Assembly: GCA_963755915.1 (NCBI GenBank)
Contig: CAVWLP010000002.1
Coordinates: forward strand, 4,320,001-4,384,000
Direction of reading: 5' to 3'
Source: an uncultured Phycisphaerales bacterium
GTDB lineage: Bacteria > Planctomycetota > Phycisphaerae > Tepidisphaerales > Tepidisphaeraceae
Length of the DNA stretch: 64,000 bases
Positions 2,444 through 53,785 of this stretch are shown here, piece by piece; positions within the stretch are counted from its first letter, which is position 1; each line of letters begins with the position of its first letter. A model generated the notes under the pieces. That model saw only the letters and a program-made list of their open reading frames with translations, did no database searches and was not told the origin of the DNA. The position numbers were made by a program, and so were the translations under genes.

Positions 2444-2471
2444 TGCCGCAAAGCATTAAACTATTTACGCG
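2444..2471 (+). promoter_or_regulatory. Putative XylR/AraC-type operator, copy 1
   Basis: TGCCGCA-aagcattaaact-ATTTACGCg upstream of the PEP-CTERM gene; same spacing as the copies at 9477 and 10778. Confidence 0.7.
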
Positions 2472-2574
2472 ATTTATGATGGCATCCGCGCCTGTTCAAT
2501 CACTATGTTGTGGTCATCGTTTTTGATGGACCTGGAGGAAATTCCGGCACGCCTTGCTGGAGAGGAGCGGTTTC

Positions 2575-4494
2575 ATGCGGACGAGGAAAAATACGAGGAC
2601 TACATTCTATATCGCGGCGGCAGCAGGCGCGGCGGCGCTGCTGGCTACCCATGCCAACGCACAAACAAATCTGCTCATTGACCCCGGATTCGCCGCCGGC
2701 GTTGACGGCGCTCCAGATGCTACTGCGGGCGATCAGGCCATGGGCGGGGTCGCGGGCGGTGGCGGAAGTGTCGTGCCATGGAATGGGTACAGCACTTTCT
2801 TCTATCCGTATTCGGCCTATTACACCGTCAGTGTTACGCCGCGTACGCCGGGCGATCAGGTCGGCAAGACCTTTGGCGGCGGCGGGACATACTCCGGCGG
2901 AATTTATCAAGTAATCAGTGGCGAATCACAGGGCGTTTATGGCGGGGATACCTATGTGGCCGCCGGATGGTTCGACGACGACGCCAGCGATCCGCTTTCG
3001 CCAGGCGCTACCGACCAGATTGAGCTGAACTATTATGCAGCCCCGGAATCGGCGGCAGGTTCACCGAACGGGACGCCACCCGAACAGGAATACACTTCTT
3101 CCTCTGCGTTCATGACAAGCACCGGCTATACGCCAAGCACATGGTTTCAGTTCAGCACCCCCGACGGTCCTACCGCGGTCACCGGTGGATTTGCGGTTTA
3201 TGGAACCCAGGCGCTGGAGTGGGAAGCGTTATACAGCGATCCGGGATATCAGGGCGGCTCACTTTTTGTCGATGACGCGAGCCTGATCGACACCACCCCC
3301 GTGTGGAACGGCGGTGGCGCTGATAATAACCTGATGACAAACGGCAACTGGAGCGCTGCAAGTGGGACTGGCGGGGCATCGACCGCCGTTGCGCCGGCTT
3401 CCCCCGACGGGCTGGTCTTCGACGGCACAACTAAAACGACTCCAAACAACAATTTCCCGACCGACACGACCTTCACCGGCATCCGCTTCGGTGCCCAGAT
3501 CGGTGAAAGTGCCGGATCAACGGGCGCCTTTACCCTGACCGGCAACGAGATCGATCTCGCGGGTGACATCATCAACAACAGCACGATCACTCAGACCATC
3601 AACATTGGCCTGGTTCTCTCCAATGGCGTCACCAACAACGTCAATATCAACGGCAACGGCGCGGGCACCGGCAATCTGGTCATCAACGGCGCCATCAGCG
3701 GCGGAAATTCACTCACCCTCCTTGGCCCCGGAACCGTAACCCTCAAGGGCGCAAACAGCTACTCTGGCGGCACCAACGTCGCCGCCGGCGAGCTCGTAAT
3801 TGGCGCAAACGGCGCGCTCCCCGCCAACAGCGCCCTCTCCATCACCGGCGGAACCGTCCAGCTCGGCCAGTCCACCGGGTTAGAAACACTCTCTTCCCTC
3901 AGCATCTCCACCAACGGCGTCCTCGACATCACCAACAACCACCTCATCATCAACTACGGCTCCGGCAGCGACCCCATTGCCTCCATCGTCGCCGCCATCC
4001 AGACCGGCTACACCAACGGAACCTGGACCGGCAACGGCATCATCTCTTCCTCGGCGCAGGTCAATACCAACGGCCTGCGCTACGGCGTCGGATTCGCCGA
4101 CGGCGCAGACGGCGTCGTCGTCGGCCTCTCCAGCGGCCAGATCGAGCTCAAATACACCCTGCTCGGCGACGCCAACCTCGACGGCAGCGTCAACGGCTCC
4201 GACTTCTCCATCCTCGCCGCCAACTTCGGCCTCGGCCGCACCAACTGGGACCAGGGCAACTTCCTGTTCAGCTCTTCGGTCAACGGCAGCGATTTCAGCG
4301 CACTGGCCGCCAACTTCGGCCAGGGCGACTCCGGCGCCGACTCATCCGTCACTCCCGCCGACATCGCCGCGCTCGACGCCTTCGCCGCCGCCAACGGCCT
4401 GCCGCTGCCAACCATCGCCGCCGTACCCGAGCCCGCATCCCTCGGGCTCCTCGCCACGGGCGCACTCTATTTCACCCGCCGCCGCCGGCGCTGA
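2575..4494 (+). CDS. Secreted PEP-CTERM protein with autotransporter-associated beta-strand repeat and dockerin-like module
   Basis: Signal peptide; GPGTVTLKGANSYSGGTNVAAGEL repeat; duplicated GDANLDGSVNGSDF Ca-loop motif; C-terminal VPEPASLGLLATGALYFTRRRRR. RBS GGAGAGGAG. Confidence 0.88.
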   Translation: MRTRKNTRTTFYIAAAAGAAALLATHANAQTNLLIDPGFAAGVDGAPDATAGDQAMGGVAGGGGSVVPWNGYSTFFYPYSAYYTVSVTPRTPGDQVGKTFGGGGTYSGGIYQVISGESQGVYGGDTYVAAGWFDDDASDPLSPGATDQIELNYYAAPESAAGSPNGTPPEQEYTSSSAFMTSTGYTPSTWFQFSTPDGPTAVTGGFAVYGTQALEWEALYSDPGYQGGSLFVDDASLIDTTPVWNGGGADNNLMTNGNWSAASGTGGASTAVAPASPDGLVFDGTTKTTPNNNFPTDTTFTGIRFGAQIGESAGSTGAFTLTGNEIDLAGDIINNSTITQTINIGLVLSNGVTNNVNINGNGAGTGNLVINGAISGGNSLTLLGPGTVTLKGANSYSGGTNVAAGELVIGANGALPANSALSITGGTVQLGQSTGLETLSSLSISTNGVLDITNNHLIINYGSGSDPIASIVAAIQTGYTNGTWTGNGIISSSAQVNTNGLRYGVGFADGADGVVVGLSSGQIELKYTLLGDANLDGSVNGSDFSILAANFGLGRTNWDQGNFLFSSSVNGSDFSALAANFGQGDSGADSSVTPADIAALDAFAAANGLPLPTIAAVPEPASLGLLATGALYFTRRRRR

Positions 4495-4734
4495 ACCCCA
4501 AACCAATATCGGAGAACCAGCAATCGTTGCAACCGATCATCGAAACATCGCACACAAATTCATCCATGAAGGTCTTCCCGATCCGGTATTATCGTGGGAC
4601 TCATCCGGGGGTGCGCAAACTTCTTCCGCCGTGAAAATTGAAATCGCCGTAACTTCCGGATTTAAAATGCCTACAACGCTCTGGTCTTGTGGTAGAATCG
4701 ATGCGCGGACATCGCGATCGGTCCGGGCTGCTTT

Positions 4735-7700
4735 ATGACCGTCTCCTCCACCATCCGCTCTCTCACATCGCCCGCCGATGAGCTCGAAGGATTCGTCCTC
4801 CTCGACGGCGTCGATATGTACCGCATCCCCGATTTCGACCGCCTCCCCCCTTTCCTCATCGCCGTCACCAGCGAGTCCGACCTCTGGATGTACGCCTCTT
4901 CCGCGGGCGGCGTCACCGCCGGCCGCATCGACCCCGACCACGCCATCTTCCCCTACGAAACCGTCGATCGCCTGCACGATTCCCACGGCATCACCGGCCC
5001 GCAATCCCTCTTCCGCGTTTCCCGCCCGGGCCACCCCACCGTGCTCTGGGAACCCCTGGCCATCCAGAACCGCTCCCCGCTCACCACCCGAAACCTCTTT
5101 AAAAATGCCCTCGGCAACCGCCTCATCTTCGAGGAAATCCACCACCAACTCCGCATGACCTTTCGCTTTGCCTGGACCACCAGCACCCGCTGGGGATTCG
5201 TCCGCACAGCCCGGCTCATCAACAATGACGAAGATTCCCCCGCCCGCGTCGAAATCCTTGACGGGCTGCTCAACATTCTCCCCGCCGGCGTCTGCCTCTC
5301 CATGCAGCAAACCCTCAGCTCTCTCGTCGACGCCTACAAGCAGAGCGAAATCGACCCCGAAACCGGCCTGGCCATCTACTGCCTGACTTCTCTCGTCAAT
5401 GATCGTCCCGAGCCGCTCGAAGCGCTCACCGCCACCACCGTCTGGACCCGCGGCCTGACCGGCGCTTCCATCCTGCTGCGCGACGACCTCCGCCGCGCCT
5501 TCCGCGAACGCGCCGACCTCCACCCCACCCCCCGCGTCAACGGCCGCCGCGGCGCTTTCCTTATCCACCACACCGCCCAGCTCGATCCGCGCCAGCATCT
5601 CGAATGGGACATCGTCTGCGACGCCGACCAGGACCACCGCGCCGTCGCCTCCACCCGCGCCCTCCTTCGCCAGGACGCCCAGCAGATCCGCTCCCAGATC
5701 CGCGACGACTGCCGCCGCAGCGAAATCGGACTCCTCAAAATCGTCGCCGAGGCCGACGGCCTTCAGTTCTCCGGCCAGAAAATGGCCTGCTCCCACCACC
5801 TCGCCAACGTCCTCTTCAACTCCATGCGCGGCGGAATCCCCCTCGACCAGGGAAAAATCCACGCCGAGCTTTTCCGCCAGTTCGTCGCTTCCCGCAACCT
5901 CCCCGTCTTCCGCGTCCATACCGATCTCCTCAACAATCTGCCGAACAGTTTCGACGTTCCCCAACTGATCGAATTCGCCGTCGCGGCCTCCGTCCCCGAT
6001 CTTTCGCGCCTGGCCCACGAATATCTCCCCCTCTTCTTCAGCCGCCGCCACGGCGATCCCAGCCGCCCGTGGAATCTCTTCGCCATCCATCTCCGCAACC
6101 CCGACGGTTCCGCACGCGTCGACTACCAGGGCAACTGGCGCGACATCTTCCAAAACTGGGAAGCCCTGGGAGTTTCCTTCCCTTCCCTCATCGAAAGCTT
6201 CATCGCCAAGTTCGTCAACGCCTCCACCATCGACGGCTTCAACCCCTACCGCATCACCTCCCGCGGAATCGACTGGGAAGCCCCCAGCCCCGATCACTCC
6301 TTCGGCCACATCGGCTACTGGGGCGATCATCAAATCGTCTACCTGTTAAAACTCCTCGAGCTCTCCCGCGACTTCCACCCCAACCAGCTCGAATCCTGCC
6401 TCACCTCCGAAATCTATAGCTACGCCCGCGTCCCCTATCGCCTCGACACTTACAGCGCCATCCGCCGCAACCCGCGCCAAACCATCCTCTGGGACGAAGC
6501 CCTCGCCGCCCAGATCGATCGCCTCGTTCAGGAAGAAGGCGCCGACGGCAAGCTCCTTCGCAACCATTCCGGCCAGGTCTATCACGCCTCGCTTCTCGAA
6601 AAACTTCTCGTCCCCCTCCTCTCCAAGCTTTCAAACCTGGTCCCCGGCGGTGGAATCTGGCTCAACACCCAGCGCCCCGAATGGAACGATGCCAACAACG
6701 CCCTCGCCGGCTTTGGCCTCTCCGTCGTCACCCTCGCCTACCTCCGCCGCTACGTCGATTTCCTGCAGACCCTTTTTGCCACCGTAAAGTCCGAGCCCTT
6801 CTGGCTCTCCGCCGAACTCGTCGATTGGTCCATGGACGTCCGCCGAATCCTCGCGCTCCACCAGCCGATTCTCCACAGCCAGACCATCTCCCCCGAAGCC
6901 CGCTCCGCCGTCATCGACGAACTCGGCTTCGCCTTCGAGCACTACCGGCGCGAAGTCTACCCCGCCGGCTTCTCCGGCAAGCGCACCTGCGAAATCGACT
7001 CCCTCCGCGAGCTCCTCGCCCTCGCGCTCCGCTATATCGACCATTCTCTCGCCGCCAACTGGCGACCCGACGGCCTTTTCCATTCCTACAACCTCCTCGA
7101 GCTTTCCGAGCGCCCCAACCGCGCCTCCATCCGCCCCATGCACGAAATGCTGGAAGGCCAGGTCGCCCTCCTCAGCTCCGCCACCGCCGACCCCGCTCGA
7201 TCCATCTCGCTGATCGATGCCATGTTCAACAGCCACCTTTACCGCGCCGATCAGCAGACGTTCATGCTCTATCCCATCCGCGAAATCCCCGGCTTCCTGG
7301 AAAAGAATATCATCCCCCCCGCCGCCGCAAGGTCGAGCCCCCTGCTCTCGGTCCTCCTGGCCTCCGGCGCAAACGACATCGTCTGCAAAGACGCCGCCGG
7401 CGTTGTCCGCTTCAACCGCGATTTCCGCAACCGCGGAAACCTCCAGCAGGCGCTCGATCTCCTCTCCTCCGACCCCGCGTGGAAAAATCTCGTCGCCCGT
7501 CACGGCCAGGAAATCGCCGAACTCTACGACAAAATCTTTGCCCACGACGCCTTCACCGGCCGTTCCGGCGCGATGTACGCCTTTGAAGGCATCGGCTGCG
7601 TCTACTGGCACATGGTTTCCAAGCTCCTCCTCGCCGTCCAGGAAACCTTCTGGCGCGCCGTCGATTCCGGAGCGACCCCCTCCCAGATCGACGCCCTCGC

Positions 7701-8220
7701 CGACGCCTACTACCGCGTCCGCGTCGGACTCCAGTTCAACAAATCCGCCCACGACTTCGGCGCCTTCCCCACCGACCCCTATTCCCACACCCCCCTCGAA
7801 GGCGGCGCCTCCCAGCCCGGCATGACCGGCCTCGTCAAAGAAGAAATCCTCACCCGCCTGGGCGAATGGGGCCTGCGCATCAAGACTGGCCAAATTCATT
7901 TCACCCCACGCCTATTGCTCCGCAACGAACTCCTGGCAAAGCCCGCCACCTTCTCCTATTTCTCCCTGGCAGGCCCCATCGCCACCATCGACCTTCACCC
8001 CAACATGGCCGCCTTTACCTTCTGCCAAACCCCCATCGTCTACCGCGCCGACGAATCCGCCCCCGCTCTCTCCCTCACCGTCATCCGCACCGGCGGCATC
8101 CGTCACCACCTCGACGCCAGCACCCTCGGCCCCAAGCTCTCAACAGAAATCTTCCGCCGCACCGGCGCTGTCTCCCGCGTCGAAGTGACAATTCCATCAA
8201 AGATTCTACGCCCCGACTAA
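4735..8220 (+). CDS. Beta-1,3-glucan phosphorylase, GH149-like
   Basis: 1161 aa with YQGNWRDIFQNWEAL, GYWGDHQIVYL, NTQRPEWNDANNAL, EGIGCVYWHMVSKL, FPTDPYSHTP and QPGMTG motifs; no signal peptide. Confidence 0.82.
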   Translation: MTVSSTIRSLTSPADELEGFVLLDGVDMYRIPDFDRLPPFLIAVTSESDLWMYASSAGGVTAGRIDPDHAIFPYETVDRLHDSHGITGPQSLFRVSRPGHPTVLWEPLAIQNRSPLTTRNLFKNALGNRLIFEEIHHQLRMTFRFAWTTSTRWGFVRTARLINNDEDSPARVEILDGLLNILPAGVCLSMQQTLSSLVDAYKQSEIDPETGLAIYCLTSLVNDRPEPLEALTATTVWTRGLTGASILLRDDLRRAFRERADLHPTPRVNGRRGAFLIHHTAQLDPRQHLEWDIVCDADQDHRAVASTRALLRQDAQQIRSQIRDDCRRSEIGLLKIVAEADGLQFSGQKMACSHHLANVLFNSMRGGIPLDQGKIHAELFRQFVASRNLPVFRVHTDLLNNLPNSFDVPQLIEFAVAASVPDLSRLAHEYLPLFFSRRHGDPSRPWNLFAIHLRNPDGSARVDYQGNWRDIFQNWEALGVSFPSLIESFIAKFVNASTIDGFNPYRITSRGIDWEAPSPDHSFGHIGYWGDHQIVYLLKLLELSRDFHPNQLESCLTSEIYSYARVPYRLDTYSAIRRNPRQTILWDEALAAQIDRLVQEEGADGKLLRNHSGQVYHASLLEKLLVPLLSKLSNLVPGGGIWLNTQRPEWNDANNALAGFGLSVVTLAYLRRYVDFLQTLFATVKSEPFWLSAELVDWSMDVRRILALHQPILHSQTISPEARSAVIDELGFAFEHYRREVYPAGFSGKRTCEIDSLRELLALALRYIDHSLAANWRPDGLFHSYNLLELSERPNRASIRPMHEMLEGQVALLSSATADPARSISLIDAMFNSHLYRADQQTFMLYPIREIPGFLEKNIIPPAAARSSPLLSVLLASGANDIVCKDAAGVVRFNRDFRNRGNLQQALDLLSSDPAWKNLVARHGQEIAELYDKIFAHDAFTGRSGAMYAFEGIGCVYWHMVSKLLLAVQETFWRAVDSGATPSQIDALADAYYRVRVGLQFNKSAHDFGAFPTDPYSHTPLEGGASQPGMTGLVKEEILTRLGEWGLRIKTGQIHFTPRLLLRNELLAKPATFSYFSLAGPIATIDLHPNMAAFTFCQTPIVYRADESAPALSLTVIRTGGIRHHLDASTLGPKLSTEIFRRTGAVSRVEVTIPSKILRPD

Positions 8221-8343
8221 CCGCTGCCCCGGCGCTTTTCGTTCGGCATTTGGCAACCAGAAACTGCCCTCCGGGCAGATGGCATCCAGCCGATGCGGTG
8301 TACCGCTCCTCGCCTCCGGCTGCGGTTCGGCAATCGGCAATTC

Positions 8344-9471
8344 CTAAAGATTTCCCACCCGATGCCCCTTCCGATACGCCGTCGGCGTCATCGCCAGATG
8401 CTCGTGAAATACCGTGCTAAACCTCACCCCGCTGGCAAACCCCGATTGCTCCGCCACGTCCGGGATCGGCAGGCTCGTCTCTCGCAGCAGCTTGCACGCC
8501 CGGTCCAGGTGTACCCGCCGAATCTCATCCAGCAGACTCCTCCGCATGACGCGCTTAAACCGCCGCTCCAGGTTCCGCCGGCTCATCGCCACTTCTTCCA
8601 GCACGTCCTCCACGCTGATTCGTTCGTTGGCCCGCCGCCGGATAAACTGCGCCGCCTCCGCGACCACTTCATCCTCGATGCTCATCACGTCGGTCGAGTG
8701 CCGCGTAATCACCCCATTCGGCGGAATCTCCATCGGCGACCCTTTCACCGATTTTCCGTTCATCAGGTCCTCCAGCATCTTCGCCGCGGCGAACCCCACC
8801 CGCTCGGCCCCCAGCTCGATGCTCGACAATGTCGGCCGCACCATCTCCGTCAGAAAGACGTCGTTGTCCACCCCCAGCACCGCGATCTCCTCCGGAACCG
8901 AAATTCCATTCTCCCGGCAGATGTCGATCGCATGCCATGCATACCGGTCGTTCGCCGCCAATATCGCGCAAGGCCGCGGCAGCGACATGATCCAATCCCG
9001 CGAAACAACATCCACCTCCGTCGAAGCGCTGAAGAAAGCTTTTTCCCCCCGGCACTCGGCCCCAAACGCCTCCTGCCGCAGCTTCGACCACGACGCCGTC
9101 GGATGCCCGCAAAATCCGAACGAGCGGAACATCCTTTCCCAGAAATACTCAAACGCCATCTTCCCCACCGCCGCATCGTCCGGCAAAACCGTCGGGACCT
9201 TGGCGGCCTGAAGCTGCCGAGCCGATAGCGTCCGCGCCGCGTTCACCATCGGCACCTTCCCCTTCTTAAACCGCTCGATGCTCCGCATCCCATGCACCAT
9301 CGCGATGATCCCATCCGCCCCGCCCGTCTGCGGCGTCTTCGACGAGAGCGAATACATCGGCGGCATGATGAACTCCCAGTCCGCCCGCAAGTTCGCATAA
9401 GCCATCACCCCGCGCAGCACCCCCCTGCCGTAACTGCCCGCAAACTCGACCTGGATTCCGATTCGAATCAT
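8344..9471 (-). CDS. XylR-type transcriptional regulator (LacI-like ligand domain + AraC HTH)
   Basis: YGRGVLRG...VPEEIAVLGVDND...PTLSSI...SRRNLERRFK...VAEQSGF...MTPTAYRK. Confidence 0.92.
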   Translation of the reverse strand: MIRIGIQVEFAGSYGRGVLRGVMAYANLRADWEFIMPPMYSLSSKTPQTGGADGIIAMVHGMRSIERFKKGKVPMVNAARTLSARQLQAAKVPTVLPDDAAVGKMAFEYFWERMFRSFGFCGHPTASWSKLRQEAFGAECRGEKAFFSASTEVDVVSRDWIMSLPRPCAILAANDRYAWHAIDICRENGISVPEEIAVLGVDNDVFLTEMVRPTLSSIELGAERVGFAAAKMLEDLMNGKSVKGSPMEIPPNGVITRHSTDVMSIEDEVVAEAAQFIRRRANERISVEDVLEEVAMSRRNLERRFKRVMRRSLLDEIRRVHLDRACKLLRETSLPIPDVAEQSGFASGVRFSTVFHEHLAMTPTAYRKGHRVGNL

Positions 9472-9476
9472 GTGGA

Positions 9477-9504
9477 TGCCGCAAAACGTTTAATTATTTA
9501 CGCA
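9477..9504 (+). promoter_or_regulatory. Putative XylR/AraC-type operator, copy 2
   Basis: TGCCGCA-aaacgtttaatt-ATTTACGCa, 5 bp from the regulator start codon, in the divergent regulator/DUF1559 gap. Confidence 0.7.
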
Positions 9505-9612
9505 AAATAGCGTCACACCCCCCCTTTGGCAAATCGTAGTATTCGTGCGTCGCCCCTAAGGCGGCGGCACACGTTTTCTGGGCGACATACGCAGGCGGCT
9601 GAGGAAACAAAT

Positions 9613-10611
9613 ATGAGTCTCGACTATGCAACGCGGGTAAGCGCTCGATCAACTGCAATCCAATTCCCCGCAAATTCCCCGAAACCCCGCCCCGCCTTTA
9701 CGCTCGTAGAACTTCTGGTTGTTATTGGCATAATCGCTATTCTCATTGCCGTTCTACTGCCGGCGTTAAACAGGGCCAGGGAACAGGCAAACTTGATCAC
9801 CTGCCAGACCCACCTTCGCCAGATAGGACAGGCCATTCTGCTTTATACGATAGACAATCAGGGATACCTCCCCTTCGGCTACAGCAACGGCGCCTCAACC
9901 CCGTTGGGTGCAGCAAATAATAACAATGCATCAGACTGGAGTACCCTGCTAATTAATGAAATGTCGTCCAATCACGGTAATACGTATGGCACGCAGGGCA
10001 CCGGAGCCTTGAGCTTCAATCGAGGCGTCTTCCTGGACCTCGACACGCCGGGAGTCGGAGACGCCCCTCTTAATTACTCCTGCCACCCTCGGCTCATGCC
10101 TAGCCTAAGCGACCGGGACGATTACAGAAACCCCCCTATTCAAGCGGAGAAGATCACCCTGACTCCGTACAAGCTCGCTCAGGTTCAGCGGTCCTCCGAA
10201 ATAATTCTCATCTTCGACGGGGTACTTTGCACCACTAACGGAAGCGATAATGACTTCCATTATTTCGGTGCCGCGTCTACCGGTTACGCAATTGACGACT
10301 ACCGCCTATATCAAGTACCCGCAGGCGAGCCCGGCTACACGCTGGAGCAAAACGCCACCTATCTTCTCTTCAATCAATGCGGCACAAATGGAAGCCCCAT
10401 CGATGCCGGCACCAATATGGACGATCCGAATGACATAAGCCAGGCCTTTCCCAGTGAGCCTACGCAGGTAGGATTTCCAAGATTCCGTCACATGGGCAAC
10501 AAGGTGGGAAATTTCCTCTTCTGTGACGGCCACGTCGAGTCTCGAGCTTACAAGAGCCGATACCAAAACGAAATCCTCAGGCGAAACGTCAACGTTAACC
10601 TGAATCCCTAA
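9613..10611 (+). CDS. DUF1559 (SBP_bac_10) protein with prepilin-type N-terminal cleavage/methylation motif and H-X9-DG C-terminus
   Basis: [32 protein letters not shown]...C...[32 protein letters not shown]. Confidence 0.92.
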
Positions 10612-10777
10612 ATGATCACGCCGGAAAATTAACTTACTGATTCCACCGCCTCTCCCTTTTCTATATCAAAGCCCCCGGCGCACCAGACCACCTAGTGCGT
10701 CTCTCATTCCCGGAAAACCTTCCCCGATTTCCCCTTCTTCCCCTTTCCCGCATCAAATTTCTCCCTTTGCGTCTTCA

Positions 10778-10805
10778 TGCCGCATTCCATTAAATGATTT
10801 ACGCA
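10778..10805 (+). promoter_or_regulatory. Putative XylR/AraC-type operator, copy 3
   Basis: TGCCGCA-ttccattaaatg-ATTTACGCa upstream of the PEP-CTERM/GH158/GH16 genes. Confidence 0.7.
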
Positions 10806-10908
10806 AAATGGGATGGTGATCCGCCTGAACTGCCTTATCTTATCCGTCGTACAAATCGCTCCGGGCTGGCACCCGCAGCAGGTCATTTCAAACACTTGGA
10901 GGAAAGAG

Positions 10909-11628
10909 ATGCGAGGCCCAATCTTCTCACGTACCGCGTACCTTACGGCCGCCGCTCTGTTCGCTTTCGCGGCACGCTCCCATGCGGCTATCGTCACCGT
11001 CAGCTCGGCAACCATGACCGACGCCTACATGGCCTGGACACCGCTGCCCGGAAACACCGTTGGCGGCGCCAGCGCCGGCGGCTGGAGCGTCGGCGCACTC
11101 GACGCCAGCTTCGACGTCACCGGCGAAACCGTTACCGTCAGCCCCAACACCAATATCGCCGACACTGCTGCCGGTAGCACCTACTGGTTCATCGGCGGCA
11201 ACACCAACGACCCCGGCCAGCTTATGGACGCCAGCCTCTACGCCGAAGTCGACAGCATCACCGACCTCAATTGGACCTTCAACTACAACGTCCTCTCCAA
11301 CACTTTCCAGTTTCCGCCAATGACCTCCTCCAACGCCTTCATCAAGGCCTTCGCTCCGGGCTATGCCTACATCGGCGAAGTCGACGCGCCATTGACCGTC
11401 GGCACGGGCAGCCTCACCTTGAATCCCTCAACCCCCGGCTTCTCCAGCCTCGCCGCCGGCGACATCATCCAGTACGGTTTTGAAACGGTCGGCCCCGACC
11501 TGACCGACAGCGCCGCTGCCGCCGCAGGCAACGCCGTCATCACCGCGGTCGTCCCCGAGCCAACCACCTGCACAATCCTGCTCGGCCTGGCGGGTGGTTA
11601 TCTCCTCCGGAGGAAACGGACTGCCTAA
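10909..11628 (+). CDS. Small secreted PEP-CTERM protein
   Basis: RBS GGAGG; signal peptide ending RSHA; C-terminal VPEPTTCTILLGLAGGYLLRRKRTA. Confidence 0.88.
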   Translation: MRGPIFSRTAYLTAAALFAFAARSHAAIVTVSSATMTDAYMAWTPLPGNTVGGASAGGWSVGALDASFDVTGETVTVSPNTNIADTAAGSTYWFIGGNTNDPGQLMDASLYAEVDSITDLNWTFNYNVLSNTFQFPPMTSSNAFIKAFAPGYAYIGEVDAPLTVGTGSLTLNPSTPGFSSLAAGDIIQYGFETVGPDLTDSAAAAAGNAVITAVVPEPTTCTILLGLAGGYLLRRKRTA

Positions 11629-11704
11629 AATAGGAATTGTCTTCAGCCGTTGAAATGTAAGTCGCGTGTTTCCAAAATTTGTTTCAGGAAGTTCGCAACC
11701 GAAT

Positions 11705-13527
11705 ATGTACTCGCATGCGACTCGTCTCCGGCTGGCCTTCGTTCTCCTGGCCGTTGCAGCTATTTCGCCCTCCTACGCTGCCTCGGACCCGGACGCCCCC
11801 TCACACGTCCAGCTCCGCAAGACCGACAACGGCTGGACGATCCTCCGCGAAGGCCAGCCCTTTTTCATCCAGGGCGCCGGTGGCGACGGTTCGAGACAGC
11901 TCCTGAAAGATTGCGGCGGGAACTCCTTTCGCCTCTGGGGAGCGGATGACATCGGGCCCCAGCTCGACGAGGCACAACGCCTGGGGCTCGCTGTCACCGT
12001 CGGCATCTGGCTCGAGCACGCCGGTGGGCCAAACCACTTCGACTACCACGACCCCGCCCAGGTCGCCCACCAACTCCAAAAAGTCCGCGACGCGGTAGAG
12101 CGCTACAAAAATTACCCCGCCGTTCTAATCTGGTGCGTCGGCAACGAAATGGAAGGCTACGCCGACGGTGGTGATCCCGCCGTCTGGAAAGCCGTCGAAG
12201 ACGCTGCCGCCGCCATCCATCAGCTCGACCCCAACCACCCCACCATGACCGCTATCGCCGAGATCGGCGGCAAGCGCGTCCCCTCCATCAATCAATATTG
12301 CCCCGACATCGACATCATCGGCGTCAACACCTACGCCGGCGGCCCCTCCCTCGCCTCCCGCTATCGCGCCATGAACCCAACCAAGCCCTTCCTCATCACC
12401 GAGTTCGGCCCAGCCGGCACTTGGGAAGTTCCCCTCAACTCCTGGGCGCTCCCGTCGAACCCACCAGCACCGCCAAGGCGGATGAATACCGCGCCACCTA
12501 CGAAAACTCCGTTCTCCCCGAAAAAAATCGCCTCTGTCTTGGCTCCTACGCCTTCCTCTGGGGAAACAAGCAGGAAGCCACCGCCACCTGGTTCGGCATG
12601 TTCCTCCCGGATGGCACCCGCCTCGAACCCGTCGACGCCATGACCCAACTCTGGACCGGCAATCCCCCGCAACAACATTGCCCGCGCCTCCAGCCGATTT
12701 TGGTTGATCACGCCGACGCCAACCCCGGCCAAACCATCCACGCCACCCTCGACGCCACCGACCCGGATGGCAACCCGCTCATCGCCCACTGGGTCCTCAC
12801 CCGCGACGCCGCTGTCTACAAAACCGCCGGCCAATTCCAGGCCGCTCCCAAAAGCCTTCCCGACGCCATCCTCTCCGCCGACATCCGCACCGCGCAAATC
12901 CGCATGCCCACGAGCCCCGGCCCCTACTGGCTCTACGCCTACGTCTACGACGGCCACGGCCGTGCCGCCACCGCCGTCGCCTCCCTGCGCGTTCACGAGC
13001 CATCCGCGCCGTCATCAGGCCACTCCGTCCAGCTCCCCCTCGTCCTCTATTCCGACGATCCCCATCCTCCCACCTTTGTCCCCTCCGGCTGGATGGGCGA
13101 CATCCCCTCCCTCGCCCTCGACGAAAAATGCACCACCTCTCCCCACGCCGGCGATCACTGCCTCAAATGCCAGTTCAAATCCGACACCGGCTTCGGTGGA
13201 ATCGCCTGGCAGAATCCCCCCAACGACTGGGGCGATCAGCCCGGTGGCTTCGATCTCACCGGCGCAACCAAGCTCACCTTCTGGGCCCGCGGCGAAGAGG
13301 GTGGTGAAGTCGTCTCCTTCAAGCTCGGCATCCTGGGCGAGGGCAAAAAATTCCCCGACTCCGACCATGCCGAGCTTCCCGATGTCTCCCTCACCCAGGA
13401 CTGGAAACAATATTCCATCGATCTGGTCGGCAAAGATCTCTCCCGAATCAAAACCGGCTTCGTCTGGGTCACCACGGCCACCGGAAAACCCGTGACCTTT
13501 TACCTCGACGAGATTCAGTACGAGTAG
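11705..13527 (+). CDS. Secreted clan GH-A glycoside hydrolase, GH158-like endo-beta-1,3-glucanase, with C-terminal CBM-like domain; frameshift near 12445
   Basis: FIQGAGG...NSFRLWG...WCVGNE (acid/base)...ITEFGP (nucleophile)...CLGSYAFLWGNKQEATATWFGMF. C-terminal PSGWMGD...DLTGATKLTFWARG domain. One G missing in tgg(g)gc rejoins the frames. Confidence 0.78.
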
Positions 13528-13532
13528 ACGTT

Positions 13533-16032
13533 ATGTTCACAAATACCGGACAGAAAAAGACAAATTCCAATCCCGATAAAACCCGGCGCGGCGACTTCAG
13601 TCGCCGTGTCTTCGCAAACTCCACAAAGCGCCGCGCCAAACTCTTCTCTAACGCCATCGAACCCCTCGAATCCCGCTTCCTCCTCACCGCCGCCCCCACC
13701 ACCGTCAACGCAAACAACGGCTCCACTCCCACCGACATCCAGGTCACCTGGTCCGGCGTCTCCGGCGCAACCGGCTACCAACTCTGGCGCAACTCCTCCG
13801 CCACCACCAACGGCGCAACCGAAATCGCCTCCAACGTCTCCGGCACTTTCTACGACGACACCAATCTCACCGTCGGCAACAACTATTACTACTGGGTCAT
13901 CACCAACGCCTCCGCCGGCAACAGCGGCTTCTCCACCATCGCCAGCGCCACCGCCGGCACCCTCGTCTTCAACGACACCTTCGGCGCCACCGGAATCTCC
14001 TCCGCCTGGGGCAAGGAAAACACCACCGACCCAAACAACCCCGACGTCAATTACGTCAACAACTCCACCACCCTTTATCTCACCAGCGATCCCAACGCCA
14101 CCGATGGCGAAGCTCTGGCCATGTCTCTCTACCCCGTCAACAATTCCACCTCCGATTACGACTCCGCCGAGATCAGCACCCGCGTCGATCCCTCCAACGT
14201 CGCCAACAACCTCGAATACGGCGAAATCGAGGCCCGCATCCAACTCCCCGGCGGCAACGACTCCGCCGCCATCTGGCCCGCATTTTGGATGCTCGGCACC
14301 GACATCTCCTCGGTCGGCTGGCCCAACTGCGGCGAAATCGACATCATGGAAAACGACGGCGCCTACCCCGGCACCAACGACTCCACCCTCCACGGCCCCC
14401 AGACCGGCCAGACCGACGGCTACAACGGCGGCGACGGCGTCGGATCTTCCTTTACCCTCCCCGGTAATCAGGATTTCTATTCCTCCTTCCACACCTTCGC
14501 CGTCAATTGGGGACCCAACTTCTGCACCTTTTCCATCGACGGCAACGTCTTCGCCACCATCACCCCGTCCAATCTCCCTTCGGGCGCCACCTGGGCCTTC
14601 AACGGTCACCCCTTCTACATCATCCTCGACGTCAACGAGGGCGGCAGTTTCGCGCCCGGCAACATCACCAGCGAGCAAACCATGTACGTCGACTGGGTGC
14701 GCGCCTATAGTTTTTCAGCGCCGACGAATCTTGTCGCCTCGGTTGCCACCAGCAGCAGCCCGGCTCACATCTCGTGGGCCGCGGTAACCGGGGCGACTTC
14801 TTACGAGATCTGGCGAAATTCCTCCAATAACTCATCAAGCCCACGGAACTAAACGGCAACGTCACCACCACCAGCTACAACGACACCAGTGCCACCGTCG
14901 GCTCCAACTACTACTACTTCATCGTCGCGGGCAACGCAGCCCAAACCAGCAACTATAGCGCCGGCATCGAAACCCGCCTCACTCCCACCGTCACCATCGC
15001 GACGCCCCCCAGCTATATCGCCTACGATGGCACAAGCGATGTGACGAATTGGGCCACGGCGACCCTCACCGGCGTGAGCGGAAAACCTGCTCCCACCGGC
15101 TCGCCAACCCTCGCCTGGTACGCCGGCTCAACCGACACCGGCACACCGCTCAGTTCCCCCCCAACTAATCTCGGCATCTATACCGTCGTCGCCAACTACG
15201 CCGGCGACACCAACTACGTCCCCACCCAAAGCGCCCCGACAACATTTACGATTCAAAACCCCGTCGGCCTCTCCACCAGCGCCGGGGCAGCCTACAACAT
15301 TACCTGGTCCTCGGGCATCCCGAGCTTAAATGTCACCGCCGGCACCATCACCCTCTCGCAAGACCTCTCGACGACTTTCCCGAATTACAACCTCTCCATC
15401 AACACGAATTCCACGGTCGTCCTGAACGCCACCCAGCACCTCGGCGCCTCGTCCTCACCGGCGGCACCATCGACATCAGCTACTACTCCTTCTATATCGA
15501 TTACGGCTCCAATTCCGACCCTATCGCCACCATCGCCGGCTACATGCAAACCGGCTTTAACCAGCAGCGCTGGACCGGCCAGGGCGGCATCACCTCCTCC
15601 GCCGCCGCCGCCAACCCCTTCGTCTACGCCGTAGGCTACGCCGACTTTAACGACCCGGGAAATCCCGCCAACCTCCCCTCCGGCACCATCTATGTCCGCT
15701 ACACCCTTCTGGGCGACGCCAACCTCGACGGCACGGTGAACGGCTCCGACTTCTCGATCGTGGCCGCCAATTTCGGCCTCGGCGTCACCAACTGGGACGA
15801 AGGGAACTTCCTCTACGGGAGCTCCGTCAATGGGTCGGACTTCTCCGCGCTGGCCTCCAATTTTGGGCAGGGAGTGAGTATTCCGGCGGCTGTTACGCCG
15901 ATCGTCGAAGCTCCTGCCGCAACCAACGCAACGGCATCGACTTCTACGTCGTCCACATCCTCTCAAAGCACGGCGGATCAGACGCTTCACAAGGCGAAGG
16001 GCGGGCACGCAACCGACCGGTTGCGGCACTGA
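13533..16032 (+). CDS. Multidomain GH16 laminarinase-like protein (LEPR-XLL N-terminus, FN3-like repeats, GH16, dockerin-like); frameshifts near 14840 and 15448
   Basis: IEPLESRFLL; YGEIEARI...WPAFWMLG...GWPNCGEIDIME (GH16 ExDxxE); later frames give a second FN3-like repeat and YTLLGDANLDGTVNGSDF. Confidence 0.85.
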
Positions 16033-16199
16033 ACATTTTCGGACAACGGCACCCCGGAAGTGACGGGCGCGCCCGTGCCGCTTCCGGCAACGGCCTGGGG
16101 CGGGCTTGTGCTGCTGGTGGGACTTGGGGGTTTTAAGCAAGTCCGACGGTACTTCATGAGCGTATCGCTGCCGATGGCGTGAAGGAGCGCGATTCTCTG

Positions 16200-16272
16200 C
16201 GCAATCGCTTCGAACGGCAGTTCCGTTGCAACGTGGCCTGAGACGGTGGGCGACTACACCCACCCTACTGGC
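16200..16272 (+). repeat. 73-bp direct repeat copy A, ending in a REP-like GGTGGG...CCCACCCTAC hairpin
   Basis: Gapless match to 17113-17185, 60/73 identical by manual count. Confidence 0.8.
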
Positions 16273-16289
16273 TCGCCAAACCAAAACCC

Positions 16290-16319
16290 TTGACCCGTTC
16301 CTACCGAATACGGTAGTAT
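16290..16319 (+). promoter_or_regulatory. Sigma70-like promoter of the TA operon with a palindromic operator
   Basis: TTGACC-N18-TAGTAT; inverted repeat CTACCG-aata-CGGTAG (16301-16316) overlaps the spacer and -10 box. Confidence 0.6.
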
Positions 16320-16342
16320 CCTCGCGCACTGGAGCGGTCCGC

Positions 16343-16669
16343 GTGCGGCACGAGCGATTTGAATGGGAGAAGGCCAAGGCCGATGCAAACCTCAGAAAGC
16401 ATCGCATCTCTTTTGAAGACGCCGCCGCGGTGCTGGCCGACCGGTTTGGGGAGCAGAGCCATGTTACCGAATTCGATGCAGGGCACTCGCGGCGGGAGGA
16501 TCGCTGGAAGACGGTTGGATCCTGGCCGTTCGACCGATCGAAGGTCTTCGTGATCGTCTGGACCACGCGGGCTGACGAAAGCGGCATGACTGTCACCCGG
16601 ATCATCAGCGCCAGACCGGCAACGCGCGGGGAAAGAAAGGAATACAAAGATGAAACGTCGAGCCCCTAA
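16343..16669 (+). CDS. brnT: BrnT-family ribonuclease toxin
   Basis: RFEWEKAKADANLRKHRISFEDA...EDRWKTVG...TRIISARPATRGERKEY; GTG start after GGAG. Confidence 0.85.
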   Translation: MRHERFEWEKAKADANLRKHRISFEDAAAVLADRFGEQSHVTEFDAGHSRREDRWKTVGSWPFDRSKVFVIVWTTRADESGMTVTRIISARPATRGERKEYKDETSSP

Positions 16670-17015
16670 ACTTATCCGATTCAGCGCATCACAAATCGCC
16701 GCACCAGGTCCGGCCGACCGTCGGCGGATTCGGCAGGCGTTTAAGGGCCGCGTCGACACCAGCGATATCCCCGAAACACGCGGAATCAAGCGTCACGGCC
16801 CGATTTGGAACGCGATTGCCGACGCGATGCAGCGACAGGGCTTGACCGGCCACGCCCTGTGGAAGCTGGCGCGCCCCTTTGCCCCGCAGATGCCCGAATC
16901 CGCGGTATATGAATTCCTTTCCGACAAGCGATCGGTCCGCGTGGAATATGCGGATGCCATGCTCCAGGCATTGCAAGTGCGCCTCGTGTCATGGCGAAAG
17001 AAAAAAGCCGGTTGA
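16650..17015 (+). CDS. Putative antitoxin (BrnA-like DTSDIPE motif + Cro/Xre-like HTH)
   Basis: Overlaps the brnT stop. VDTSDIPE motif, then helical IADAMQRQGLTGHALWKLA...PESAVYEFLSDKRSV...ADAMLQAL. Confidence 0.65.
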   Translation: MKRRAPKLIRFSASQIAAPGPADRRRIRQAFKGRVDTSDIPETRGIKRHGPIWNAIADAMQRQGLTGHALWKLARPFAPQMPESAVYEFLSDKRSVRVEYADAMLQALQVRLVSWRKKKAG

Positions 17016-17201: not shown

Positions 17202-18809
17202 TCAAATTCTTGAGATCCTCTGCTTCCCCGGAGTACGGAGTGACTGATACAAAAAGATGCCGGCACACAGCAGTAATGCCCACCCCAGACCGGGATACAT
17301 TCCGTCAATGAGCCGCTTTAGCGGCGGTCCCAATGGACCGTGTGCCGTGGGGAGAAAGTCGAGCCGGCCGTCACTGTCGAGCAGAATACCCAGTGTCATC
17401 AAACCGCTGGCTGCCGAGATTATCATCAGAAGAAGGGTCATTCCGAGTGAATCGCCGATCACGATTGCCCCGACGCCGGCGGCCCATACCAAATATCGCT
17501 CGTGCATGTGCGGAGCGAGGGCGAAAAAGAGCAGCCAGGGCGTCGTTGCCGCCACCAGCCAACGAGTACTTTTCCAATGCCGTTGCAAAACCAATCCCAC
17601 GATTGCGGGGATCAACCCGCAAACGTAAATCGCGCCAAGGAGGTCAGCGGTCGTTACCGGGACCGGCGGTAAGGACCAATTCCCCACATGAGGCGTGAAT
17701 GTGAAACAGATATCGTCTGAATTGAAGTGATATCGTCGCTGAAGAATGCCGGACAGAGAGTCGCTTGCGCCCATATCGAGGTTCGGATATTTCTCAATGC
17801 CATATTGGAAGCCGATGCGATACCAATCGAGCGCGGTCGACGAGGAAAAAGCTCCCGAAAAAAAGGCGCCCGCCAGGAGAGTCGTTATAACGCCCTCGAA
17901 CCAAGCTCGCGGCAGCCGACGCAGCAAAAGGGCCGACGCGGCGACGACGGCGATGAAAACAAGCGGAGGCCAATTGGGAGTCCTTCGGCCATCGGAGAAA
18001 TGCGTCAGTAACCACGGAGATACGATTGTGGCTGCGGCAAGCAGAAATCCTCCTAGCCAGCGCAAAGCGGCCAAAAGGTCTCCGCGGAAAACAGGCCAGA
18101 GAACGAATACCGGCGCCACCACCAGCAACTGCCCTTTAAACATGCACCCGATTCCGATGACCACACCGCTGACCATCCATCGCCGCCTGGAGGCCGCCAA
18201 AATCGCCCACAGATAAAATGGCAGGATCCATCCATCCCAACTGGGACGCATCCAGGAGTCGATCCAGATACCGGGATTGAGCCACAAACACATTGAAGCC
18301 GCCAGCGCCAGCCACGAACTGCGAATGGTTTGCCACACGAGCAAGCCGGCCGCCAGCGCCGCGGCCAGTTCCGTGGCATTATTGAACAGAAGCAAGGGCC
18401 GATTGACGCGATATTCGCTTCGCCAGTGACGCAGCTGAAAGCCGGCCAAAAAGTCGGGCATTTTCAGCTCATTGGGATTGATCTGGGGTACCATGTCCGG
18501 AGCGGCGTGATCGAGCCATTTCGCCCAGAGCGTGAAGACCGCCAGCCGAAGCGGCGGATAATCCAGGCCGTAATCATTTTTATCGCGGCTTTGCATCAGC
18601 AACGAATAGAGATTGAAATACCCCAGTTTGTGCGCACGATTTCCCCATCGCAGCGCGTTTTCCATGTCTGACGAATAATGGATACGCGCGCTGGCGCGCC
18701 AAGCCCACGAGCGCAGATGCAGCCCCGCCTCAGCCAGTAGCGCACAGGCGATCGCAAGCAAGACGCGGCGCAACCACCTCGGCCAGAAACCTGGGTCAAC
18801 ATTCTTCAA
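17202..18809 (-). CDS. Polytopic membrane GT-C fold glycosyltransferase-like protein
   Basis: LDYPPL after the first TM helix, WLNPG, FKGQ and PHMHERY motifs; many TM segments. Confidence 0.6.
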   Translation of the reverse strand: MKNVDPGFWPRWLRRVLLAIACALLAEAGLHLRSWAWRASARIHYSSDMENALRWGNRAHKLGYFNLYSLLMQSRDKNDYGLDYPPLRLAVFTLWAKWLDHAAPDMVPQINPNELKMPDFLAGFQLRHWRSEYRVNRPLLLFNNATELAAALAAGLLVWQTIRSSWLALAASMCLWLNPGIWIDSWMRPSWDGWILPFYLWAILAASRRRWMVSGVVIGIGCMFKGQLLVVAPVFVLWPVFRGDLLAALRWLGGFLLAAATIVSPWLLTHFSDGRRTPNWPPLVFIAVVAASALLLRRLPRAWFEGVITTLLAGAFFSGAFSSSTALDWYRIGFQYGIEKYPNLDMGASDSLSGILQRRYHFNSDDICFTFTPHVGNWSLPPVPVTTADLLGAIYVCGLIPAIVGLVLQRHWKSTRWLVAATTPWLLFFALAPHMHERYLVWAAGVGAIVIGDSLGMTLLLMIISAASGLMTLGILLDSDGRLDFLPTAHGPLGPPLKRLIDGMYPGLGWALLLCAGIFLYQSLRTPGKQRISRI

Positions 18810-53676: not shown

Positions 53677-53785
53677 CCGGCCGATCCCTTATGATGGCCG
53701 ACGATTCGCGTGGGATATCGAAAACGCCTATCGGCAAATGTGGCGCATTTGTCTCACCCGGATCTTCGAACCCCGCCCCCCAGCC

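Follow-up and report, generated by a model that had tools for sequence, protein, structure and literature searches.

A gene cluster at positions 2444-16032 of the 64,000-nucleotide (nt) stretch analysed here (the window; contig C2:4320001-4384000 of a soil planctomycete genome) very probably constitutes a β-1,3-glucan utilisation regulon, an assessment that covers the identity of the locus and the co-regulation of its genes jointly. The cluster encodes a large and a small PEP-CTERM protein, a GH149 phosphorylase, a XylR-type regulator, a pilin-like protein of the DUF1559 type, and GH158 and GH16 glucanases, and it is a real, conserved module of the Planctomycetota/Verrucomicrobiota superphylum resembling a polysaccharide utilisation locus (PUL). 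A sequence-only reading of the same DNA had proposed that the pilin-like and PEP-CTERM proteins, in place of an importer, serve in the substrate-specific capture or uptake of the glucan, and the role assigned in this way was partly supported. The explanation that we favour as a whole, in which the regulon would include a surface-exposed fibre, is given a probability of about 0.45. The genome analysed comprises 6.63 Mb in 3 contigs (81% complete and 8% contaminated according to tool figures), and close homologs and related contigs bear NCBI and JGI names of Tepidisphaeraceae or Phycisphaerales.

Enzymes of the Glucan Locus

The seven contiguous genes named in the sequence-only reading were all recovered, in the same order and at approximately the same coordinates (Table 1), from the open reading frame (ORF) listing and from family scans, in which Pfam and NCBIfam/TIGR models were applied to chosen ORFs; solved relatives were sought by PDB searches. 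The genes outside the divergent regulator form three transcription units on the same strand, composed of the PATR/PEP-CTERM gene with the GH149 gene, the DUF1559 pilin-like gene, and the small PEP-CTERM gene with the GH158 and GH16 genes. The ORFs of the large PEP-CTERM, pilin-like and small PEP-CTERM proteins open at TTG 2554, TTG 9526 and position 10813, and their likely starts are ATG 2575, ATG 9610 (behind GAGGAA) and ATG 10906, respectively.

The GH149 protein matched PDB 6hq6 over residues 20-1156 (E 1.3e-296) and belongs to the NF058639 equivalog family with a score of 1406.8 bits (cut-off 1150) over model positions 9-1133 of 1134. Since its N-terminus has no hydrophobic signal, the enzyme is predicted to be cytoplasmic. 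The two GH158 frames, 11666-12643 and 12298-13527, matched residues 23-240 (E 2.1e-51) and 225-423 (E 1.2e-33) of PDB 9oro_A, as well as the GH158 structure 6pal_A, and the coverage of the solved catalytic domain places the protein in that family. Its GNE and TEFGP stretches, which we take to hold the catalytic Glu residues, align with 9oro_A, and its N-terminus carries a signal peptide. For GH16, frame 13533-14852 gave 60.1 bits with PF00722 (cut-off 22), and two frame changes carry the gene on to position 16032; the top PDB matches were endo-β-1,3-glucanases or laminarinases, and an EIDIME motif, presumably the GH16 ExDxxE active-site motif, is present. Because the enzymes of the locus are GH149, GH158 and a laminarinase-type GH16, the predicted ligand is β-1,3-glucan, and on this point the family models and the PDB matches bore out the sequence-only reading. 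The N-termini of GH16 (13533-13700) and of its orthologs (L105-L109) show a conserved EPLE[SG]R[FLV]LL[ST] sequence after a basic region, in place of a classical signal peptide; similar N-terminal motifs occur on secreted planctomycete proteins.

The gene list required one correction: GH158 and GH16 are single genes, and single-base gaps interrupt the reading frame of both. The GH158 frames overlap near 12440-12460. In the congeners, which were assembled in many contigs, both genes are single ORFs (GH158 of 632-680 and GH16 of 863-1097 amino acids (aa)), and 4/4 aligned congeners have one extra G at the GH158 break. Contigs from public runs labelled as soil metagenome insert a G behind 12443, 14840 and 15447, the latter two being the GH16 frame breaks with one G missing after each, and at no other site in 9400-16100; this support is thin, with a depth of 3.6-4.1 and one or two runs per site. 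Since these contigs add one G at each of the three sites, the breaks are probably assembly errors, each gene being intact. The opposite explanation, that the locus is being lost and that GH158 and GH16 are frameshifted pseudogenes, would account for the three frame breaks in the window sequence. It is very improbable, given the filled gaps, the G found at the GH158 site in the congeners, the intact catalytic motifs and the similar splitting of unrelated genes: PntB (35027-36463, minus strand) and an EF-G-family gene (59795-61338, minus strand) are each present as two ORFs in different frames, and a GH3 (L081), a GH36 (L085) and an MFS gene (L087) are likewise split elsewhere in the genome. Frequent single-base indel errors of the assembly may explain the completeness figure of 81%.

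Regulator and 27-nt Element

An element of 27 nt is found at 2444, 9477 and 10778, always on the plus strand and 105, 107 and 102 nt upstream of the likely ATG codons, respectively; these are 3 matches in the window as compared with 0 expected from shuffled sequences. A genome-wide search with a relaxed pattern returned the three locus copies and one poor intragenic match, and marked no gene outside the locus. All eight congener loci (8/8) have 2-4 copies at corresponding places, and in L106 one copy stands before each of two tandem DUF1559 copies. Since the same element precedes all three units, there is in-silico support for the pilin-like and PEP-CTERM genes being in one regulon with the glucan enzymes. 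A half motif, TTACGC[AG]A[AT][AT]T, gave 18 genome matches, 2 of them before DUF1559 genes, and is thus not a general promoter element of the other DUF1559 loci.

The regulator (8344-9471) scored 110 bits with Peripla_BP_3 and 71 bits with HTH_18, and only 17.8 with PBP1_XylR (cut-off 27). The earlier assignment therefore holds as to architecture, the protein being of the XylR type without being assigned as an orthologue of the E. coli-type XylR. Copy 2 of the element abuts the divergent regulator gene, and the neighbouring XylR-type regulator may be the protein that binds the element.

Table 1. Features of the β-1,3-glucan locus in the window.
Feature	Position	Strand	Characteristics
27-nt cis-element, copy 1	2444..2470	+	TGCCGCA-N5-TT-N-AA-N2-ATTTACGC; 105 nt upstream of ATG 2575
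Large PEP-CTERM surface protein	2575..4494	+	Signal peptide, ~230-aa N-terminal domain, PATR repeats, dockerin-like repeats, PEP-CTERM anchor
GH149 β-1,3-(oligo)glucan phosphorylase	4735..8220	+	PDB 6hq6, NF058639
XylR-type regulator	8344..9471	-	Peripla_BP_3 sugar sensor and AraC-type helix-turn-helix (HTH); divergent from pilin-like gene
27-nt cis-element, copy 2	9477..9503	+	6 nt off regulator start codon; 107 nt upstream of pilin-like ATG
Prepilin/DUF1559-type (H-X9-DG) pilin-like protein	9610..10611	+	G|FTLVE class III signal, 50-residue N-terminal helix, ~250-aa head
27-nt cis-element, copy 3	10778..10804	+	3 mismatches to IUPAC pattern; 102 nt upstream of ATG 10906
Small PEP-CTERM protein	10906..11628	+	Signal peptide, ~190-aa β-sandwich (carbohydrate-binding module (CBM)-like), PEP-CTERM anchor; single copy
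GH158 endo-β-1,3-glucanase	11666..13527	+	Signal peptide, C-terminal extra domain; two frames, one G missing after 12443
Multidomain GH16	13533..16032	+	FN3 - GH16 (EIDIME) - FN3 - Ig-like - dockerin-like repeats - Ser/Thr/Pro-rich tail; three frames

Conservation of the Locus

The conserved co-occurrence expected by the sequence-only reading was found in the congeners. GH149 is present in 8 of the 12 that were searched, and 8/8 of these keep the order PATR/PEP - GH149 - XylR - DUF1559 - GH158 - GH16, with the best pilin-like homolog ~1.4-2.5 kb from GH149 and the regulator between them. The small PEP-CTERM gene is present in 4 of those 8 loci, where it lies between DUF1559 and GH158. Six other GH149 loci of Planctomycetota and Verrucomicrobiota were scanned (L001, L003, L004, L006, L040 and L073), among which L001 repeats the layout of the window. 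L003 and L006 have MFS_2 beside GH149 and a DUF1559 gene 7 kb off, and in L040 (Limisphaerales) a prepilin gene and two members of the small PEP-CTERM family accompany transporters of the MFS_2 and Sugar_tr families. An ABC importer and no DUF1559 match were found in L004, and none of these genes in L073.

PEP-CTERM Proteins

Both PEP-CTERM proteins have the C-terminal end expected of this class (VPEPASLGLL...RRRRR in the large and VPEPTTCTILL...RRKRTA in the small protein), with TIGR02595 scores of 25.0 and 18.9, respectively (cut-off 16), and 3 exosortase matches were found in the genome. The large protein gave in addition 32.8 bits with Pfam PATR and 20.8 with PEP-CTERM (cut-off 20.7). For its N-terminal ~230 aa the Atlas lead, to be read as a lead only, was CBM4/9- or DUF642-like with a score of 0.84-0.86, and beyond the PEP-CTERM tail this domain has nothing in common with the small protein. 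Dockerin_1 passed the cut-off in the L001 homolog of the GH16 tail and not in the large PEP-CTERM protein.

Neither Pfam nor NCBIfam models recognised the ~190-aa domain of the small PEP-CTERM protein, the PDB offered no relative by sequence (the best match, to an antibody, had E 0.023), and no paralog of the protein was found in the genome. Its AlphaFold2 (AF2) model (pLDDT 90.8) is a β-sandwich, for which a VIA-wide structural search gave CBM44/30-type, CBM15, CBM16, CBM86 and porphyran-binding CBM matches with Z 7.6-9.2; interspersed with these were a Vip3A toxin fragment, a glucosyltransferase domain and tail-fibre and tailspike proteins of phages. Foldseek with the whole model returned CBM rows of high probability; the terminal helices disturb this search (JMJD7 rows, root-mean-square deviation ~20).

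In a library of 1.84 billion proteins the family of the small protein comprises 177 representative clusters at E<=0.001, and some members have the domain in as many as 8 tandem copies. Among 40 members scanned, 4 are fused to GH16, 7 have a Por_Secre_tail sorting domain and many have Ig domains. A carbohydrate-active enzyme (CAZyme) marker for β-glucan was present within 8 kb in 47 of 66 family loci, which belong mostly to Verrucomicrobiota and Planctomycetota according to the record titles; the markers were GH16 in 41, GH158 in 22 and GH149 in 21 loci, and in 6/66 loci GH16 and the small-protein domain share one ORF. Because of the CBM-like fold, the GH16 fusions and the β-glucan context in 47/66 loci, the small PEP-CTERM protein is a good candidate for a substrate-specific surface glucan binder, and a better one than the pilin-like protein.

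A DUF1559-type ORF lies within 500 bp of the family gene in 19 of 48 loci outside the genus, on the same strand in 17 of them; the 48 loci are the 66 minus 5 congener loci with the full synteny of the window and minus 13 in which phmmer gave no family ORF. The expected adjacency is ~2-4%, as calculated from the 43-89 prepilin-type genes that five genomes of this kind have per ~5 Mb. The pairing of the small PEP-CTERM family with a pilin-like gene is conserved across two phyla.

DUF1559-Type Pilin-Like Protein

The class III signal, the N-terminal helix and the fold matches place the pilin-like protein in the type IV pilin/pseudopilin superfamily: it scored 27.1 bits with PF07963 N_methyl (cut-off 21.2) and 21.2 with TIGR02532 (16.3). 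As to the DUF1559 assignment of the sequence-only reading, the prepilin signature was found and many homologs at 38-51% identity carry a precomputed PF07596, their JGI name being H-X9-DG proteins; the protein itself stayed just under the cut-offs of both PF07596 (20.0 vs 23.3) and TIGR04294 (18.3 vs 19). PF07596 was passed by 4 other paralogs in the locus Pfam scans and at 21 places in a genome search.

Structure prediction, which had been proposed as a check, gave the CBM-like β-sandwich described above and, for the DUF1559 protein, weak pilin matches; the head of the latter has no solved relative. The AF2 model (pLDDT 87.1) shows a 50-residue N-terminal helix and a large head. In the VIA-wide search against representatives, 25 of 27 chains with Z>=2 were type IV pilins or pseudopilins, PulG and EpsG included. 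With Foldseek, no PDB entry reached E<=0.001, the resemblance to pilins being in the N-terminal helix only, and in a PDB profile search only the first ~55 residues were matched (PilA4, E 6.3e-11 over the helix). A predicted complex of the DUF1559 head and the small PEP-CTERM domain had a score of 0.00, which speaks neither for nor against binding. In an alignment of 76 DUF1559-type proteins, C65, Y156, H159, R161, R291, R293, H294, N301, D306 and H308 (333-aa numbering) were invariant; these polar residues lie outside the N-terminal helix and suggest one shared site, perhaps for a metal or for assembly, whatever the locus.

The genome has ~64-66 DUF1559-type genes (median mature length 287 aa). 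A DUF1559-type gene directly adjoins 6 of the 13 XylR-type regulators, where 0.31 would be expected (0/2000 shuffles reached this count). With the LacI-type added (52 regulator genes), 13/64 DUF1559-type genes abut a LacI- or XylR-type regulator (1.2 expected) and 28/64 lie within 5 genes of one (5.6 expected). Pfam scans of 11 DUF1559/regulator loci revealed large PATR/PEP-CTERM proteins and CAZymes for differing substrates, seven loci carrying GH3/GH76, GH53 and GH2, three GH16, alginate lyase, GH36/GH95, or GH28 and pectinesterase, and others GH10/GH44/GH52, GH43 or PcRGLX/GH35. From this context the pilin-like gene is a generic accessory of sugar-regulated CAZyme loci. The genome also encodes 4 secretins, no fewer than 5 GspE/PilB ATPases of full size and others of PilT size; next to the secretin/ATPase operons are genes for small canonical pilins (129-162 aa). 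Two ORFs for group II intron reverse transcriptase/maturase with identical scores, L081:17973-19358 (C2) and L082:13328-14713 (C3), lie inside or beside two DUF1559/XylR CAZyme loci and indicate a mobile intron spreading in the genome.

Transporters

In agreement with the sequence-only reading, no TonB-dependent receptor, SusD, ABC or MFS family was detected by Pfam among the 13 locus ORFs, nor among 6 flanking ORFs, in a scan of chosen ORFs in 1-22000; adjacent SusC-like and SusD-like genes, which define a PUL of the Bacteroidota type, were likewise not found among the ORFs scanned in this region. The whole genome has 3 matches to TonB-dependent receptors, none of them in the window; SusD was sought only among the scanned ORFs.

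The further claim that the pilin-like and PEP-CTERM proteins stand jointly for any dedicated transporter was not upheld and is hardly credible. It would fit the lack of transporter families in the scanned locus, the 3 TonB-dependent receptor matches in 6.6 Mb and the lack of a GH149-linked MFS_2 homolog in the genome: no homolog of the MFS_2 of L003 was found in the window's genome (81% complete, which limits the transporter negatives), PF13347 gave 3 weak matches elsewhere in it, and no homolog of the MFS_2 of congener G004 was found there or in 6 other congeners. On the other side, a cytoplasmic phosphorylase needs passage of its substrate through the inner membrane, which is beyond pilins and anchored lectins. 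Moreover, 3/6 other GH149 loci (L003, L006 and L040) pair a DUF1559-type or prepilin gene with MFS-type transporters, 14/21 loci with GH149 and the small PEP-CTERM family have an MFS-type transporter within 8 kb, and in G004 an MFS_2 gene (L107:1293-2717) has been acquired within this very cluster, where it separates the PATR gene from GH149. Since other DUF1559-type loci of this genome also carry MFS, ABC or SSF importers, the pilin-like gene does not replace an inner-membrane importer. The MFS_2 of G004 is 83% identical to L040:8490-9905 of a Limisphaerales metagenome-assembled genome, while the flanking GH149 proteins are each ~45-61% identical to that of the window, a pattern suggesting that the transporter recently passed from one phylum to another.

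Two candidates for a hidden importer were discarded. The ABC binding protein beside the L004 GH149 has a 35%-identical homolog on contig C1, in a GH52/GH44/GH10 locus that looks xylan- or xyloglucan-type rather than part of a laminarin system. The other candidate, at 17202-18809 (minus strand), is a polytopic protein of 535 aa with no Pfam match, and looks GT87-like instead (Atlas lead GT87/GT-C glycosyltransferase, score 0.98); when the locus is aligned with that of the closest congener, nothing corresponds to this stretch. Further genes of the GT-C type in the window are GT87 at 33901-35070 and PMT_2 at 53738-55006 and 55583-58501.

Proposed Mechanism and Alternatives

In the mechanism that we favour, the XylR-type regulator would switch on the three units when β-glucan oligomers are sensed, the secreted GH16 and GH158 would cut the polymer outside the cell, and the PEP-CTERM-anchored CBM-like proteins would retain the glucan on the cell surface, with the small, single-copy protein as the substrate-specific binder. 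The oligomers would reach the cytoplasm through an inner-membrane importer encoded away from the locus, and phosphorolysis by GH149 would give glucose-1-phosphate. The DUF1559 protein would be an inducible, large-headed accessory pilin built into a type IV filament machine, where it would form or tip a surface-exposed fibre aiding the capture of glucan and its haul to or through the outer membrane; such a fibre would correspond to the outer-membrane SusC/D step and not to the inner-membrane importer. This role of the pilin in capture or uptake is put forward tentatively, its likelihood falling somewhat short of even. An extended form of the mechanism, by which bacteria of the superphylum that lack SusC/D would take up polysaccharides selfishly, with a modular type IV filament in which the inducible DUF1559 pilin of each substrate locus, built into a shared retractile machine, and a locus-specific CBM-like anchored partner (here from a new domain family associated with β-glucan) would grip the polymer and reel it through a secretin into an enlarged periplasm, and in which the hypervariable heads would reflect surface exposure to phages and grazers, is unlikely when taken as a whole.

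A number of points weigh against the favoured mechanism. The fold matches of the protein to pilins are weak (best Z 4.9), and its N-terminus scores best against GspG (TIGR01710, E 2.3e-8) and ComGC (NF040999, E 3.9e-8), far under the cut-offs in both cases; close homologs carry the NCBI name 'type II secretion system protein'. The pilin head is only 39% identical to that of the closest congener and the pilin N-terminus 76%, as compared with 97% for the regulator, 95% for GH149, 91-94% for GH158, 88% for the small PEP-CTERM protein and 87% for GH16. Outside the genus, 3 of 34 DUF1559 proteins of β-glucan loci have this paralog as best match, most of the 34 aligning over the N-terminal 60-80 residues only, and such low similarity across phyla argues against a conserved glucan-binding site in the pilin head. 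As to the figures, CBM-like Z values of up to 9.2 are within the range that unrelated models reach by common architecture (according to the tool's note), a single peptide pattern served to collect the 66 family loci, the congeners that keep the gene order are non-independent samples, and the enrichment counts for DUF1559-type genes beside regulators rest on a crude home-made codon-usage gene caller and an error-prone assembly.

The variability of the head bears on both the capture role and its rivals. The DNA of the closest congener is unalignable over 9893-10675, which corresponds to the head, while both flanks are 89% identical, and across the genus the pilins of this locus represent three or more allele groups. 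The allele of the window is not a misassembly, since public-run contigs cover it without difference. Replacement of a head between near-identical loci is a pattern typical of exposed pilins; a hypervariable head would fit a surface-exposed subunit under diversifying pressure and would fit poorly with a conserved, substrate-specific binding head. Because of this hypervariability, the pilin-like protein is doubtful as a substrate-specific binder. The proposal of substrate-specific capture by the pilin-like and PEP-CTERM proteins was therefore retained for the small PEP-CTERM protein, with its CBM-like fold, GH16 fusions and β-glucan context, and not for the DUF1559 protein with its ~64 paralogs.

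The GspG/ComGC-like N-terminus and the NCBI naming would fit a secretion pseudopilus equally well. The DUF1559 protein would then be a co-induced, locus-specific accessory pseudopilin of a type II secretion system (T2SS), exporting or displaying GH16, GH158 and the PEP-CTERM proteins without a role in glucan capture or entry, an explanation that is almost as likely as the capture role. Signal peptides or anchors are carried by 4/7 locus proteins, which must cross the outer membrane; the pilin gene is usually directly downstream of a gene for a secreted protein with the domain of the small PEP-CTERM protein (17/19 pairs on the same strand); and the genome encodes a T2SS-like set that includes a small pseudopilin. 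Periplasmic pseudopilins are usually well conserved, so that a head replaced between near-identical loci is more in keeping with an exposed fibre; for export a single generic pseudopilus should be enough, and ~64 large-headed paralogs would need an additional reason such as cargo specificity; and the head has ~250 aa as compared with ~100 aa in GspG-type subunits. For Verruconatronum alginivorum, whose alginate-induced cluster includes a pulG-like pseudopilin with 67 paralogs, export of the lyases by a T2SS has been proposed (PMC13274419). Alternatively, the pilin-like gene may be a bystander that is present only because its family is abundant and mobile and that has a general envelope role, unrelated to β-glucan, in adhesion, motility or defence against phages or predators. 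The ~64 paralogs, the hypervariable heads and the lack of an orthologous clade across phyla are in line with this, and in Planctopirus limnophila 2/68 paralogs were essential for growth on laboratory medium, a hint that some roles are general (PMC10632474). Its own copy of the 27-nt element, its fixed position in 8/8 congeners and its enrichment beside sugar regulators and, across two phyla, beside the small PEP-CTERM family make a bystander improbable.

Comparison with Known Systems

Laminarin PULs of Bacteroidota combine GH16, GH158, GH17/GH30/GH3 and in some cases GH149 with SusC/SusD and surface glycan-binding proteins. The present locus has in common with them predicted surface endo-glucanases, putative surface glycan binders and a predicted substrate-sensing regulator in one co-regulated cluster, and in many Bacteroidota loci homologs of GH16 or GH158 flank GH149. 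It differs in that no SusC-like transporter or SusD was found among the ORFs scanned, the putative binders are PEP-CTERM-anchored rather than lipoproteins, a prepilin-type gene has its own operator copy, no inner-membrane transporter was found in the locus, and the regulator combines a periplasmic binding protein domain with AraC (XylR type), theirs being hybrid two-component or SusR type. With the GspG/PulG and ComGC pseudopilins the DUF1559 protein shares the class III signal motif and the N-terminal helix; unlike them it scores far under the family cut-offs, has a ~250-aa head with an H-X9-DG-type end, and belongs to dozens of paralogs dispersed in substrate loci and not in a machine operon.

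One earlier case of a pseudopilin in a CAZyme cluster of the superphylum was found, the alginate-induced cluster of V. alginivorum (Opitutales) mentioned above, and a further pseudopilin was among 17 over-expressed proteins in that organism (PMC13274419). Both clusters include a gene from a pilin or pseudopilin family with dozens of paralogs, and that of V. alginivorum was up-regulated on its polysaccharide; it has PL families and an SSF transporter. The portion of that text seen describes no shared operator, head variability or partner family. Uptake and intracellular accumulation of mucin in Akkermansia need mul genes, including those for pilin-like and PilM proteins (PMC13174399). The MUL1/MUL2 system of Akkermansia muciniphila is thus a precedent in the superphylum for pilus-type parts in glycan acquisition; MUL2A, which is described as archaeal type IV pilin-like, differs in being encoded in a small conserved locus, not within each CAZyme cluster (PMC13174399). 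For Planctomycetota, a preprint describes the binding of dextran by crateriform structures, and selfish import that proceeds 'through an unknown mechanism' (bioRxiv 10.1101/2024.01.10.575047). In the literature searched, as far as its texts were accessible, DUF1559 was rarely named and never with a function, and a search for 'H-X9-DG' gave nothing relevant; no earlier link of DUF1559 to sugar regulators, shared operator, head variability or CBM-like β-glucan partner family was found in it.

The locus may help to explain how polysaccharides are taken up in Planctomycetota and Verrucomicrobiota without SusC/D. It offers a compact test case with a known ligand class, a defined operator, a single-copy CBM-like protein whose uncharacterised family accompanies β-glucan enzymes mainly in two phyla, and a pilin-like gene in the regulon, and the large DUF1559 family gains a first systematic genomic context in its adjacency to sugar-sensing regulators and CAZyme clusters. 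A role of the pilin in uptake would mean a polysaccharide-utilisation system distinct from the Bacteroidota type, and a role in secretion would mean substrate-tuned pseudopili; either outcome matters for carbon turnover, as these bacteria are common in soils and waters.

Neighbouring Genes

Just past the glucan locus, the gene at 16226-16669 (plus strand) encodes a BrnT-type ribonuclease toxin domain (PF04365, E 1e-17, 64.6 bits vs 34.5). A small downstream ORF (16650-17015), for which no family match was obtained, overlaps this gene and may encode the antitoxin. A GH18 (chitinase-type) gene without a copy of the 27-nt element is located 6 kb downstream of the locus, at 21990-23234 (minus strand). 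The presence of GH18 together with the β-1,3-glucan enzymes might mean that the bacterium feeds on the cell walls of soil fungi.

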